From: a virus
Lineage: Duplodnaviria > Heunggongvirae > Uroviricota > Caudoviricetes
Direction: 5' to 3' (one strand)
DNA: 39,614 nt
IMG/VR virus record: IMGVR_UViG_2579778871_000008
Part shown: in pieces, positions 17,834 through 21,733 of the stretch
Position numbering within the stretch: position 1 is the first letter of the stretch
Layout of the letters: every line of letters starts with the position of its first letter
Program-made: the position numbers and the translations under genes
Notes under the pieces: generated by a model
Told to the model about the DNA's origin: nothing
The model's database searches: none
What the model saw: the letters and a program-made list of their open reading frames with translations, nothing else

Positions 17834-18259
17834 TCACAGATACTGCTCCAGTGGTAACTGAAGCGCCTGTGCAATTTTCTTGAGCTGCGCTTCTTCATCC
17901 GGACCAATGCCATCCTGTTCAGCGATATCCAGACAGAGGCAAAGCACGTCAACCGCCTCAGTTGTCCCCGCCACATCAGCCAGCTCACGTAATGCATGCG
18001 CATTCGCACTACGCGGTGACGCTTCATAACGGGCGCGGATATTGGCGCTCATCTGGGCAATCTCACCAGAGAACGGTGCAAAAGCAGGAAGCGCAGCAAT
18101 GGTTTTCTCCAGTACTGCGATTTCTTTTGCGTCGCAGGTGCCGTCGGCATATGCAATGGAATATGCGCCCCAGACGGTCGCCTCCACCGCATCACGGTTC
18201 TCCATCTTCTTCACTTCAGTGATGGCCTTGCGGGTTTTCTTTTTGAAAATACCTAACAT
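17834..18259 (-). CDS. TerB-like (tellurite-resistance TerB family) domain protein
   Basis: 141 aa helical protein; pattern AYADGTCDAKEIAVLEKTIAALP...AVDVLCLCLDIAEQDGIGPDEEAQLKKIA resembles TerB fold by recall. Confidence 0.5.
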   Translation of the reverse strand: MLGIFKKKTRKAITEVKKMENRDAVEATVWGAYSIAYADGTCDAKEIAVLEKTIAALPAFAPFSGEIAQMSANIRARYEASPRSANAHALRELADVAGTTEAVDVLCLCLDIAEQDGIGPDEEAQLKKIAQALQLPLEQYL

Positions 18260-18392
18260 CGTGACTTTTCCTTTGCGTAGACGAGCCTGCTCCAGATGGT
18301 TACCAGCCCACAGTGAAAGTCACACAGACAATCCCGTAAGCACCTCCTGAAAGGCTCTGTGTTTTGGATGTGCGCCAGGTGTGGCTCAGATA

Positions 18393-18417
18393 CAAAAAAA
18401 GCTCGCCGTAGCGAGCT
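18393..18417 (-). terminator. intrinsic terminator
   Basis: agctcgc-cgta-gcgagct hairpin followed on minus strand by T7 (plus-strand a-run 18394-18400). Confidence 0.7.
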
Positions 18418-18440
18418 AACAGAAAATATGAAGCATGTTT

Positions 18441-18719
18441 TTATCCACGAAGCATGACACTGAACTCATCCATGCCTACACGGCTGGCTATCTCGTTGTA
18501 TTCCTCAACAAGAGCCAGCAATTCTGAATTAGCAGCCATGAACTCATCAAAAACCTTATGGATGGCATCACTGTTTAATAAAACAATGTTCTTTCCTGAA
18601 AGGCGATCAGGGGTAGAAAATATAACTGTTAAACGACTAAAGGCCCTGGCTCGTTCAGCATTAACATCCTCAATACGCTGCAACAAGCTGGAGCACCTGG
18701 AAATATCATCAATATTCAC
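18441..18719 (-). CDS. hypothetical protein
   Basis: 92 aa ORF followed by a clean terminator; no recognisable family. Confidence 0.4.
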   Translation of the reverse strand: MNIDDISRCSSLLQRIEDVNAERARAFSRLTVIFSTPDRLSGKNIVLLNSDAIHKVFDEFMAANSELLALVEEYNEIASRVGMDEFSVMLRG

Positions 18720-19238
18720 TCTACTCCTGCCATCTGGATGATAATCATTTCACACAGAGAAGCACTCAGAAGTACCACTGAAGTATAACTGGTGACCAGC
18801 TGCTTACACATCTGTTGCCATCCTGCTGATGATAAGTCGATATTAACCCTTCTGTCTATAAACGAAACAAAGGATAAGTTCAGGTTTTAAACACACTGCC
18901 AGGATAAAGTATTGTATACAGTATAGAAGAGCGTTATTGAATGACATAAAAAACCAGACCTAATCCCTTATCCGGAAGATATATCAAATAAACGGGGAAA
19001 ATGTATTAAGATGGCGTTCCTATTCTCTCCATCCCTGATGTCCACGTAACTCGTTATAGAATCAGAACGCCATCTGAATACACACAAAAAAGCTGGCTTC
19101 ACACCCTCCTGCATGTGTGAACGCAGTGCCCGACCACGTGCTTTCGCAACCAGCGAAAATCAGTTTTAAATACCGAAAAACGATAAGAATATATCAGAAC
19201 TTCCAAGCATCCTGCTTGGCTTAGATATTAATCGAGGA

Positions 19239-20324
19239 TTAGCTCCTGTTCTTATCTAATTGTGCATTTCGCAATTTATCGTTCAGCACCAATATTTCAC
19301 CAACTGTTTGTTCAAAACGCCCGGACTCAAGTTCAACCCCAATCGTGCGACGCCCCAATCCCATTGCTGCTTTTATTGTTGCCCCCGATCCCATAAAAAA
19401 ATCCGCAACCACATCCCCTGGACGACTGCTGGCAGAAATTATCTGACGCAACATATCCGCCGGTTTTTCGCAGGGATGCTTACCCGGATAATACTGCACG
19501 GGCTTATGCGTCCAGACGTCCGTATAAGGAACGGCGGCCGATACAGAAAAATAACGCCGCAGAGATTTGTATTCCTCAAGCAGACTGGCATATTGCCGGT
19601 TCAGTTCACTGTATGTGCTGACCAGTTGCTGGTGTGGCGTTGCCAGCTCCCCACGCTGGTGCTTTTCTTCTGCAACACACGCGAACAGCGCCTGCAGTTT
19701 TCTGTAATCAGCTTCGTTCGGTAACTGCCACTGACAGGTACCAAACCAGTGCGACACCATGTTTTTCTTTCCGGTGGCTTCCGCTATCTGTTTGGACGTT
19801 ATCCCCAGTGATTCACGCGCATCACGGAAGTAAGAAATCAGCGGGGCCATGACGTGTTGTTTAAGCTCGCGCTCCTTTGCCGCATAGCCATCATTTTTTG
19901 GCTGGTATGGCCCCTGATAATGTTCGGCAAACAGAATGCGCTCTGTTGCCGGGAAATACGCCCGCAGGCTTTCTTTGTTGCACCCGTTCCAGCGTCCGGA
20001 CGGCTTCGCCCAGATAATGTGGTTCAGCACATTAAAGCGCTCACGCATCATGATTTCGATATCAGATGCCAGGCGATGACCACAAAACAGGTAAAGACTT
20101 CCGGCAGGCTTCAGTACCCGCCAGAACTGAGCCAGACACTGGTCCAGCCATTTCAGGTAATCATCGTCGCCCTTCCACTGGTTATCCCAGCCCTCGGGCT
20201 TCACTTTAAAATATGGCGGGTCTGTGACTATAAGATCGACAGAGTTTTCCGATAAGGTCTGGATAAATTCCAGGCAATCGGTGTTGATTAACTCACAACT
20301 GGATATTTTTACAGTATCAACCAT
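19239..20324 (-). CDS. orphan DNA methyltransferase (N6-adenine/N4-cytosine class, beta architecture)
   Basis: 361 aa; N-terminal motif IV LIVTDPPY and C-terminal AdoMet motif I DVVADFFMGSGATIKAAMGLGRRTIGVE; no adjacent restriction endonuclease candidate. Confidence 0.85.
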   Translation of the reverse strand: MVDTVKISSCELINTDCLEFIQTLSENSVDLIVTDPPYFKVKPEGWDNQWKGDDDYLKWLDQCLAQFWRVLKPAGSLYLFCGHRLASDIEIMMRERFNVLNHIIWAKPSGRWNGCNKESLRAYFPATERILFAEHYQGPYQPKNDGYAAKERELKQHVMAPLISYFRDARESLGITSKQIAEATGKKNMVSHWFGTCQWQLPNEADYRKLQALFACVAEEKHQRGELATPHQQLVSTYSELNRQYASLLEEYKSLRRYFSVSAAVPYTDVWTHKPVQYYPGKHPCEKPADMLRQIISASSRPGDVVADFFMGSGATIKAAMGLGRRTIGVELESGRFEQTVGEILVLNDKLRNAQLDKNRS

Positions 20325-20474
20325 AGATCAATAAGCACTTCTCTGATAGGCTCATACCGCTTTTGCGCAAAGCGGATGGGCCTGAGGTTTGCTTGTGACC
20401 CCGATTCATGAGCAGATGGCTGGCAGGTGCCGCTAACACCCACCAGCCGCCCATTACCACAAAGTAAAAAGCCT

Positions 20475-20672
20475 TCACTGCGGAAGGCGTCTGTAACAAC
20501 CGAACTGATAATCTGCCAGACCCGCCATAACAAGCTGGGTCAGTATTAACTGACAGCGTTCGCGTGAAAGGTAAGTATTCTGCGCAATTTCCCCAACTGT
20601 TGCCGGTTCAGTGACGCTTAATTCATTAAACACCACTCTGGCTGTTTCGGTCATATCCTGCTGTTTTAGCAT
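20475..20672 (-). CDS. hypothetical small protein (possible winged-helix)
   Basis: 65 aa ORF between membrane protein and methyltransferase; helix pattern GEIAQNTYLSRERCQLILTQLVMAGL. Confidence 0.35.
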   Translation of the reverse strand: MLKQQDMTETARVVFNELSVTEPATVGEIAQNTYLSRERCQLILTQLVMAGLADYQFGCYRRLPQ

Positions 20673-20846
20673 GTCTTTTTCTCTTTATTGGTTAACGTGA
20701 CATACCAATAACTCTTGTCGAAAAAGCCAGCAAGCTGAAAGACCGGTATTAATAACCACCAGCACATTTTATGTACCACACCATTTTTCTGGCATAAAAA
20801 AACCGCTCAATGCCGGGCAGTAAAAATCTTCATTACTCAAGAAATT

Positions 20847-21560
20847 TTAACGCACTCTGATAGTATTAATTTCAAAATCATTAATATTTCCGCTATTAAA
20901 TATAACGAATTTCTTACCCCCACTCCTGTATGATTTCGATAACACCAGACGATCATCATAGCGCGCAATAATGTAATACAATACATTCTCATAGTGGATC
21001 GCCTGATATTCCTTCTTAAACTGTGGTTTGTACCAACCGGCAATAAGAGAGAATGCCCAGAAATAAATCATAAACCCAGCCATCATGAACTCAATTCGGT
21101 GATGGCGAATAAAATACATTTCCGAAAAACATTTGACTGAAACAAGTCTTCTTCCAGACCTGACAAAAAGCGTGATTGTAAAGGCAGCAAGAACGCAGAA
21201 AATCAGTACATCTGGCTCAACATGCTGATGAATTACCGAAAACTCCAGAACAGGTGGAATAAAAAGCAGCAATATCGCGAGAAAAAGCCGGATAAAACTC
21301 AAATTTTGTATATTGCGCTTTTGTTTTATGCCCAAAAAGAAAACAATACCAACTCCCCATCCAATAAGGAATATAACGATAACTGTCACAGCATAAAACA
21401 AACTTCGTGCTACATCATCGACACCAGCCCCGACAACCCACCATGGAAAGCCATAGTAAAATGAAGTACCCCATCCATAGAAATAAGCGCTTCCCCATCC
21501 TAGACAGCCCATATAAGCAACAAAAAGTGAAGAGTTTCTGAGCAGAGCACTGTCATTCAT
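20847..21560 (-). CDS. AT-rich integral membrane protein of unknown function (moron)
   Basis: 237 aa with about four to five hydrophobic helices (Trp/Tyr/Phe/Gly-rich) and a soluble C-terminal tail; strongly AT-rich; first ORF below the late promoter/terminator. Confidence 0.5.
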   Translation of the reverse strand: MNDSALLRNSSLFVAYMGCLGWGSAYFYGWGTSFYYGFPWWVVGAGVDDVARSLFYAVTVIVIFLIGWGVGIVFFLGIKQKRNIQNLSFIRLFLAILLLFIPPVLEFSVIHQHVEPDVLIFCVLAAFTITLFVRSGRRLVSVKCFSEMYFIRHHRIEFMMAGFMIYFWAFSLIAGWYKPQFKKEYQAIHYENVLYYIIARYDDRLVLSKSYRSGGKKFVIFNSGNINDFEINTIRVR

Positions 21561-21704
21561 AGTAACACCATTAACAACTCAAAAATATCAACACATATTA
21601 CATAACAAATTGGATTCCATGCAGTCAAGGGGCGTCATTGATGGAGAAAGTATTGGCACAATCGTCATCACGTTTAATGTCTATGCCATTTTTTGGGGGG
21701 ATAA

Positions 21705-21733
21705 AAAACCCGCTCGGTCGCGGGTTTTACTAG
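21705..21733 (-). terminator. tR'-like intrinsic terminator below the late promoter
   Basis: cccgc-loop-gcggg hairpin followed on minus strand by ttttttatcccccc. Confidence 0.65.

Follow-up and report, generated by a model that had tools for sequence, protein, structure and literature searches.

Accessory genes between the late promoter and the lysis cassette of a Q82/Gifsy-1-type lambdoid Escherichia coli prophage, and a candidate RNA leader of its M.EcoGII-family methyltransferase

The subject of this work is the interval between the late antiterminator gene Q and the holin genes of IMG/VR record IMGVR_UViG_2579778871_000008, a 39,614-nucleotide (nt) stretch of DNA which we call, in its full length, the window. 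The window is an Escherichia coli prophage that carries head, tail, lysis and immunity genes, and those for head, tail and lysis are intact. The interval is probably an accessory segment in the late operon of a lambdoid prophage of the Q82/Gifsy-1 type, put together from at least four exchangeable cassettes and providing a late DNA methylation of the M.EcoGII type. The first cassette would be a gene for a TfpB-family membrane protein, inserted at the late terminator tR' and accompanied by a duplicated terminator remnant. The second would consist of a winged-helix (wHTH) gene, a structured leader and a non-specific DNA methyltransferase (MTase) of the M.EcoGII family, the third of orf92 with a terminator of its own, and the fourth of the gene pair tciA-tciB.

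The whole segment 17000-22500 matches the chromosome of E. coli MS 119-7 at 100% identity, and its counterpart there belongs to a lambdoid prophage that has genes for terminase, head, tail, immunity and integrase. At least 80% of the region is found in 51 of 5426 complete E. coli genomes. Apart from a DUF1883 gene on the plus strand, the cargo between Q and the holins is encoded by the minus strand; the coordinates of all features are collected in Table 1. A sequence-only reading made earlier had estimated about 4.7 kb of cargo, and the measured distance between the Q stop (21815) and the start of the first holin gene (17049) is 4.77 kb. The five minus-strand open reading frames (ORFs) that it had named within 17834-21733 are all present (237, 65, 361, 92 and 141 amino acids (aa)). 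Each of them has homologues or a PHROG family, and they are therefore genes and not chance ORFs. The cargo was also rightly placed in the position of the Shiga toxin genes (stx), i.e. phage phiP27 and one IMG/VR relative carry stx in that interval. The present work adds to these a TciB-like peptide, the gene for the DUF1883 protein, three hairpins that resemble terminators, and the leader of the MTase gene.

Late transcription and mosaic structure of the interval

The Q protein is 66% identical to Q of Gifsy-1, whose record describes it as similar to phage 82 Q. Its gene is separated from that of the 237-aa membrane protein by a 254-bp intergenic region, and the late promoter that the sequence-only reading had supposed upstream of the cargo was located there, followed by a hairpin with a U-run. 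Both hexamers of this promoter (pR') and the initial transcribed sequence TGTAAATCTGATAT are kept downstream of related Q genes and at the isrJ promoter of Gifsy-1; in IMG/VR contigs the hexamers are conserved after related Q genes together with the initial transcribed sequence TGTAAATCTGATATTTTGCC. Near identity to the Gifsy-1 isrJ locus (L007 6547-6621) extends over the promoter and the initial 14 nt of the transcript, and a -10-like TGATATT is conserved at about +9 to +15 of the transcript. The 86-nt stretch from pR' to tR' folds with -24.1 kcal/mol (z=-3.8) and tR' alone, which lies about 50-72 nt past the predicted start, with -14.2 kcal/mol (z=-3.35). Moreover, the tR' stem shows compensatory changes in other phages (CCCGC/GCGGG, CCTGT/GCAGG, ACCAC/GTGGT). 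The Rfam family isrJ (RF01393) is matched over the full model, below threshold (23.4 bits versus a gathering score of 37). A pR'/tR' unit of the Q82 type, giving an RNA of about 72 nt, is thus well supported.

In Stx phages, stx genes in the slot between Q and the lysis genes are transcribed from pR' under the control of Q (PMC6266700, PMC7547250). By analogy with the established mechanism of lambdoid and Stx phages (PMC7547250, PMC6266700), Q would allow read-through of tR' on induction. In the lysogen, polymerase starting at pR' would halt at tR', and only the IsrJ-like RNA of about 72 nt would be made. Upon induction Q would render the polymerase resistant to terminators and take it through tR', past the wHTH-stop hairpin and the orf92 terminator, into the lysis genes. 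Transcription of the block after antitermination, as the sequence-only reading had proposed, is to be expected from its place between a Q-dependent pR'/tR' and the lysis cassette, in the stx slot. We note that in Gifsy-1 isrK, a C4 antisense RNA and an antirepressor-like gene (STM2616) lie between Q and the isrJ promoter, and that IsrJ may be the true Q-dependent late leader RNA of Gifsy-1.

Mosaicism was surveyed with tblastn and ARAGORN in 80 IMG/VR contigs with MTases that are 86-100% identical. More than 50 gene orders occur between Q and the holins of these contigs, with three types of Q, and the only constant module is 19293-20804, i.e. the wHTH gene, the leader and the MTase gene. About 30 of the contigs have TciA, about 15 have TfpB and about 12 have orf92; a single one has Stx. 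The MTase gene is followed in most of them by tRNA genes (Met/Arg/Arg, Thr/Gly, Gly and others), and the relative with stx has it between the tRNA genes and the holin. The edges of the module are sharp in blastn comparisons (left 20802-20831, right 19293-19327). On the left the boundary is at about 20804 in most of the contigs; on the right it falls inside the 3' end of the MTase gene, and this is why the last 17 residues of the enzyme are divergent.

By megablast, the wHTH-MTase unit is 84-91% identical in nt sequence to phiP27, phage 1720a-02 and many Stx2 phages. The order in phiP27 is Q, GIY-YIG, wHTH, MTase, two tRNAs, stx2e and holin, and putative DNA methylases downstream of Q have been noted in Stx2a phages (PMC10462455). 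The island thus combines known parts from a common pool in a new way. Accessory cassettes of lambdoid phages in the slot used by Stx phages are known as such; what is new is their arrangement here and the leader of the MTase gene.

Table 1. Features between the lysis cassette and Q in the window, listed in the direction of late transcription
Feature	Position	Strand	Remarks
Q late antiterminator, Q82/Gifsy-1 type	21815-22486	-	PF06323, E=4e-90
Late promoter pR'	21779-21807	-	TTGCAA-17-TATATT; 8 nt past Q stop
pR'-tR' transcript, ~72 nt, IsrJ-like	21703-21775	-	Two hairpins, the second (tR') with U-run at 21728-21703
Membrane protein, 237 aa, TfpB	20847-21560	-	PF27470 "TfpB", phrog_1521 (precomputed family tables); ~5 transmembrane helices
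Decayed second copy of the tR' 3' half	20784-20817	-	Right edge of TfpB cassette, left edge of wHTH-MTase module
Winged-helix protein, 65 aa	20475-20672	-	Weak TrmB-like match, phrog_331 (profile searches)
Terminator-like hairpin holding the wHTH stop codon	20471-20488	-	~-8.8 kcal/mol, z=-0.8
Conserved MTase leader RNA, ~135 nt	20319-20460, core ~20325-20455	-	Fold, covariance model R1
Orphan beta-class N6-adenine DNA MTase, M.EcoGII family, 361 aa	19239-20324	-	PF01555, E=6e-43
AT-rich non-coding gap, 520 bp	18720-19238	-	tRNA genes at the same place in most of 80 relatives
orf92, helical-hairpin protein, 92 aa	18441-18719	-	phrog_2873; narrow family
Intrinsic terminator after orf92	18393-18417	-	-13.0 kcal/mol, z=-3.0
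tciA homologue, TerB domain, 141 aa	17834-18259	-	PF05099; 86.5% identical to P1 TciA
tciB homologue, DUF3927, 45-aa membrane peptide	17700-17837	-	GTG start overlaps tciA stop (GTGA)
DUF1883 gene, convergent with late operon	17132-17467, RefSeq start 17198	+	PF08980, E=3e-26; PDB 2b1y, E=3e-8
Lysis cassette	15791-17049	-	Holins 16606-17049 and 16338-16634, GH108 endolysin 15791-16345; PF16931, PF05449, PF05838, PF09374

The methyltransferase and its leader

The motifs of the MTase follow the order DPPY (residues 35-38, catalytic) in the N-terminal part, a central target recognition domain (TRD) and FMGSG (residues 310-314, the S-adenosylmethionine-binding FxGxG) in the C-terminal part, and the PF01555 match covers residues 29-340. 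The enzyme is identical to M.EcoGII at 292 of 345 positions (85%) and to the reconstructed ancestor Anc291 at 297 of 345 (86%); both sequences were taken from Table S1 of PMC11551740, and the M.EcoGII sequence was machine-read from the PDF, so that a few of its letters may be wrong. It is 89% identical to phiP27 L24 and 83% to the enzyme of phage 1720a-02, which has been named very similar to M.EcoGII (PMC5778455). M.EcoGII methylates adenine whatever the surrounding sequence; its native lysogen does not express it, and constitutive expression is deleterious (PMC5778455). Homologues of M.EcoGI and M.EcoGII are silent in single-molecule real-time methylomes of Shiga toxin-producing E. coli (PMC6602927). 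DNA- and RNA-methylation rates have been measured for Anc291, and M.EcoGII, like its variants, is reported to act for the most part without sequence specificity (PMC11551740).

Residues 345-361 are unlike those of all M.EcoGII-type relatives (19239-19303) and mark a recombination junction at about 19293-19303. We note that at this junction the tRNA-bearing segment of the relatives is replaced by an AT-rich spacer and orf92. Absence of a partner endonuclease was correctly read from the sequence: the ORF list, Pfam and PADLOC revealed no nuclease gene beside the MTase gene or within the island. Its neighbours are the wHTH gene and orf92, i.e. the adjacent cognate endonuclease that defines a type II restriction-modification system is missing. 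In PADLOC only the MTase_II models were matched, and PADLOC together with NCBIfam gave no match for TfpB, wHTH, orf92, TciA, TciB or DUF1883.

The most likely role of the enzyme, judged from its similarity to M.EcoGII, is the late, sequence-independent N6-adenine methylation of progeny phage DNA as a broad protection against restriction. Made late, it would methylate adenines non-specifically in replicating and packaged phage DNA (a prediction drawn from the 85% identity), and the methylated progeny would evade many restriction systems of the next host. Protection from host restriction, one of two roles offered by the sequence-only reading, would be the likely one. The other role, epigenetic regulation in the lysogen with a sequence motif to be found there, is unlikely, as the M.EcoGII relative is non-specific and unexpressed and its homologues are silent in methylomes. 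From the homology to M.EcoGII and the silence in lysogens it follows that the lysogen methylome should show no motif. A methylome identical with and without the prophage, which had been named as a refutation, is therefore the expected result and refutes nothing.

A sequence-specific orphan MTase, active in the lysogen as an epigenetic regulator, would fit with the orphan state of the gene and with the TRD being its less conserved part (86% nt identity versus 95% for the N-terminal catalytic part). We consider it very improbable, given that the enzyme is 85-86% identical to two enzymes found non-specific in experiments and that lysogen methylomes are without signal from close homologues (PMC6602927, PMC5778455). 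Moreover, its gene is preceded by tR', by another hairpin and by a structured leader, and no Shine-Dalgarno sequence was seen near its AUG. With tR', the wHTH-stop hairpin and the leader in front of it, the late methylase would be silent in the lysogen. Because such an enzyme harms the cell, it would be kept off by the terminators and, in all likelihood, by the folded leader as well.

The leader occupies the spacer between the wHTH and the MTase genes. In all 76 viral contigs that extend far enough upstream, the wHTH gene precedes the MTase gene, with a spacer of constant length (153 nt); it is also upstream in 59 of 79 species genomes. The median nt identity of the spacer (about 150 nt) is 96% versus 80% for the C-terminal part of the MTase, which equals the best-conserved coding parts of the module, and the leader stays conserved where wHTH falls to 53% aa identity. 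The stretch of 186 nt between the wHTH stop and the MTase start folds with -75.9 kcal/mol (z=-4.0), and none of 200 shuffled sequences folded as well. The region was then compared across species, with one genome per species and 80 loci from Escherichia to Xenorhabdus and Photorhabdus, whose MTases are 63-86% identical. Among the upstream regions of Enterobacteriaceae/Erwiniaceae type, 46 of 47 are 73-88% identical in nt sequence to the window leader.

The proposed structure has the helices P2a (AUGGGC/GCUCAU), P2b (GGCUGG/CCAGCC) and P2c (distal P2, consensus UGGGUG/CACCCG), and a three-way 3' domain closed by P3a (GGUCA/UGAUC), which would pair nt -6 to -2 before the AUG. In a MAFFT alignment 92% of the cells are paired versus 27-46% with slid partners, and seven pairs show double changes, a number matched by 2 of 500 shuffles. 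The covariance model R1, which scores 120.9 bits in the window, has exactly one match per locus in 53 of 55 loci, each ending at the MTase start codon, and none elsewhere in 429 kb. It also matches in Symbiopectobacterium, Lonsdalea and Chania; in Photorhabdus and Xenorhabdus the versions found are weak and shortened. In the model-fitted alignment, which leans towards the structure, 13 pairs show compensatory changes versus 3.6 in shuffles (0 of 500), eight of them in P2. P2b alone occurs as GGCUGG/CCAGCC, GACCGG/CCGGUC, GAUCGG/CCGAUC and GGCGGU/ACCGCC. The G-U pairs are conserved and strand-specific. The P2 helix is thus well supported by the sequence comparison; the other predicted helices are mostly invariant, so that covariation offers no test of them.

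The leader is kept in 17 of 20 species loci that have no wHTH gene and is therefore an element of the MTase gene rather than of the wHTH gene. The same count and the strand-specific G-U pairs weaken the possibility that the spacer is an operator for wHTH. A mini-ORF in the spacer (MGGWWVL*, or 45 aa in the window) was rejected, as an in-frame TAG at codon 8 or indels break it in most relatives, and the peptide sequence shifts where the stem covaries, which speaks against a coding role. In Rfam 15 no family matches the leader in 17000-21900 at E<=1, where only the sub-threshold isrJ at pR' was obtained.

We infer that the leader is a cis-acting RNA that restrains the translation of a dangerous enzyme. 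It is present in at least 53 enterobacterial loci of many genera, is apparently undescribed and is a candidate for a new cis-regulatory RNA. Tentatively, it may represent an undescribed class of such RNAs, which would gate translation, perhaps in response to a protein or a ligand, and hold this genome-wide acting, cell-damaging methylase off until late lytic growth. It lies within 17834-21733 and is the element of the island most worth following.

A large group of E. coli prophages, Stx phages among them, have the wHTH-leader-MTase module as the constant core of the interval between Q and the lysis genes, and near-global adenine methylation of the progeny may therefore be a common strategy against restriction. 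If it is common, it may affect the host range of toxin-converting phages. Methylation should be looked for in virion DNA rather than in the lysogen chromosome. M.EcoGII is a widely used enzyme in biotechnology, and the conserved leader offers a testable account of how phages tolerate it. The annotation "DNA-methyltransferase" should be changed to M.EcoGII-type non-specific N6-methyladenine methylase and "tellurite resistance TerB" to TciA.

The optional cargo and the lysis side

The TfpB cassette looks like an insertion at tR'. A direct repeat (D1, 20784-20817 versus 21691-21724, 74% over 34 nt, spacing 907 nt) flanks it, and tR' directly joins the wHTH leader in four related contigs (L024, L035, L060 and L089). 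The tR' copies on both sides, taken together with these TfpB-less contigs, argue for TfpB as an insertion at the terminator. The cassette has a GC content of 36-40% versus about 50% for its neighbours. A terminator at the 3' end of TfpB was also considered and rejected; the site does not fold (z=0.1) and is read as the decayed tR' copy.

The 109 detected homologues of TfpB are all from Enterobacterales, and the relatives share a strikingly conserved N-terminal segment rich in aromatic residues and glycine. In Yersinia the homologues are found directly downstream of a different Q family. The AlphaFold2 (AF2) model (predicted local distance difference test score (pLDDT) 68) has five transmembrane helices and a small C-terminal beta domain, and a Foldseek search of BFVD with this model, at that pLDDT, gave no match at E<=1e-3. 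The literature under the name TfpB holds only same-named type IV pilus proteins. We note that TfpB homologues also occur as lone chromosomal genes outside prophages, by an sseJ-like gene in Salmonella and by lpxR in Citrobacter rodentium. These lone genes (L011 7001-7717, L012 7001-7717) are upstream of a gene that, according to its Pfam domains, encodes a frmA-like alcohol dehydrogenase.

The AT-rich gap behind the MTase gene contains no tRNA genes, nor does the window as a whole. The best promoter-like site of the region is found in it at 18858-18829 (TAGACA-18-TATCAT, 10/12), upstream of orf92, which is also preceded by a good ribosome-binding site (AGGAG). The orf92 family comprises four clusters in a word-indexed search and, when 1.84 billion proteins are searched, 18 representative clusters at E<=1e-3, with one phage match, mEp460. 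Its AF2 model (pLDDT 80) consists of two long helices in a hairpin, and Foldseek against PDB gave only generic coiled coils at E>0.2.

The gene called TerB-like by the sequence-only reading deserves this name at the level of the domain: PF05099 is matched with 31.2 bits versus a cut-off of 24.4, residues 11-57 being aligned to profile positions 60-106. The gene itself is a homologue of P1 tciA, is accompanied by tciB and has no ter operon; the companions terZ, terA, terC, terD and terE were found neither in the island nor in the annotated prophage. It should not be called a tellurite-resistance determinant on the strength of this domain homology. A sequence search of PDB with TciA returned no match. 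The TciB-like peptide is 50% identical to P1 TciB and 59% to the TciB-like protein of phage Fostie.

In P1, tciA, tciB and tciC are non-essential according to CRISPR interference (PMC10695390), and in P1-like phage-plasmids the tci genes are variably present (PMC9603915). Moreover, a 617-bp deletion (about 17735-18351; L004 3469-3826) in many of the closest E. coli relatives, e.g. strain E21845/O/A and pig enterotoxigenic E. coli strains, takes out tciA together with the 5' part of tciB, of which a remnant of 36 nt is left. For these three reasons the tciA-tciB pair is dispensable cargo. TfpB, orf92 and TciA/B taken together are optional cargo.

It may be asked whether TfpB, orf92 and/or tciAB are true morons, transcribed in the lysogen from their own promoters to the benefit of the host (exclusion, colicin or tellurite tolerance, membrane stress); exclusion or fitness roles had been suggested by the sequence-only reading for the membrane protein and the TerB-like protein. 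We regard this as rather unlikely. TfpB is of foreign composition, and its stand-alone chromosomal homologues in Salmonella and Citrobacter argue for a role apart from lytic growth, but promoter-like sites are missing from the interval between tR' and TfpB as well as immediately upstream of tciA, and the number of such sites in the region is at the chance level (10 versus 9.4 expected). For orf92, its promoter-like site and a strong terminator of its own speak in favour. For tciAB, the membership of P1 tciA in an early operon under C1 control, rather than a late operon, is set against the deletion of the pair in most of the closest relatives without apparent consequence and against the missing ter operon partners. 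No PADLOC defence model matches any of the three.

On the lysis side, the DUF1883 gene, which is also annotated in MS 119-7, is just upstream of the holins and is followed by a hairpin at about 17500-17535. Late transcription would pass antisense through it. At its place phiP27 has a small plus-strand ORF (L27). The GH108 endolysin of the window is intact with 184 aa (region 15360-15791 compared with L001 15598-16826), and in the otherwise identical MS 119-7 prophage an IS3 is inserted at the endolysin gene and truncates it. The window therefore derives either from another, related genome or from a copy that the element does not interrupt. Elsewhere in the prophage, the only matches at the Rfam gathering level are the sok antitoxin RNA, with hokD annotated in the related genome, and the small RNA DicF (26331-26505, 34925-34976). 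A zeta-toxin gene, kil and a dicB fragment are also found in the MS 119-7 prophage.

Several observations weigh against an accessory late-operon segment with late methylation. With promoter-like sites at chance frequency, individual cassettes may or may not be expressed in the lysogen. The TRD of the MTase (a four-helix domain, residues 160-237) is about 80% identical to that of M.EcoGII by inspection of the alignment, i.e. it differs at about 16 of 78 positions, and the specificity of the enzyme is a prediction from its relatives. The hairpin at the wHTH stop is not unusual (z=-0.8) and may not be a terminator; in the diverged modules L057 and L092 its stem is kept by double compensatory changes and the U-run is lost, so that its role may go beyond termination or be a different one. 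The MS 119-7 prophage, finally, contains IS3 and Rac/Qin-like remnants (kil, a dicB fragment, DicF), and the prophage may not be fully inducible.

The last point, together with the loss of cassettes in relatives, would also be expected if the block were the inert baggage of a decaying cryptic prophage, without current function. This is improbable, since every ORF of the block and the head, tail and lysis genes are intact, the leader is conserved across genera with compensatory changes, and wHTH has diverged among relatives by about 4% in nt sequence with almost no aa change (96% nt and about 100% aa identity among close relatives). An accessory segment of a late operon remains the probable explanation.

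Comparison with known systems

The pR'-tR' RNA resembles IsrJ of Gifsy-1 (RF01393) and StxS (PMC7547250) in being a short RNA that comes from a constitutive late promoter and is ended by tR'. It has no sequence relation to StxS, and it differs from IsrJ by a score that is below the Rfam gathering threshold.

With phiP27 (L21-L26) and Stx2a phages the window shares the wHTH-leader-MTase module (85-91% nt identity) between Q and the lysis genes, and many relatives also share its lysis cassette of the two-holin/GH108 type. In contrast to phiP27, the window has neither tRNA genes nor stx, and orf92 and tciAB fill that space. Where the window has TfpB, phiP27 has a GIY-YIG nuclease gene, and the Q family differs from those of phiP27 and 1720a-02.

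M.EcoGII and M.EcoGI of E. coli O104:H4 C227-11 have the same DPPY-TRD-FxGxG order as the window enzyme, and like it they are prophage-borne and without an endonuclease partner. M.EcoGII has 349 aa whereas the window enzyme has 361 aa, the last 17 of which are unrelated, and about 20% of the TRD residues differ. The tciA-tciB pair, finally, is similar to tciA-tciB-tciC of phage P1 in its proteins and in the overlapping arrangement of its genes. The P1 genes are part of the early, C1-controlled ban operon, whereas those of the window lie in a lambdoid late operon and are without tciC.

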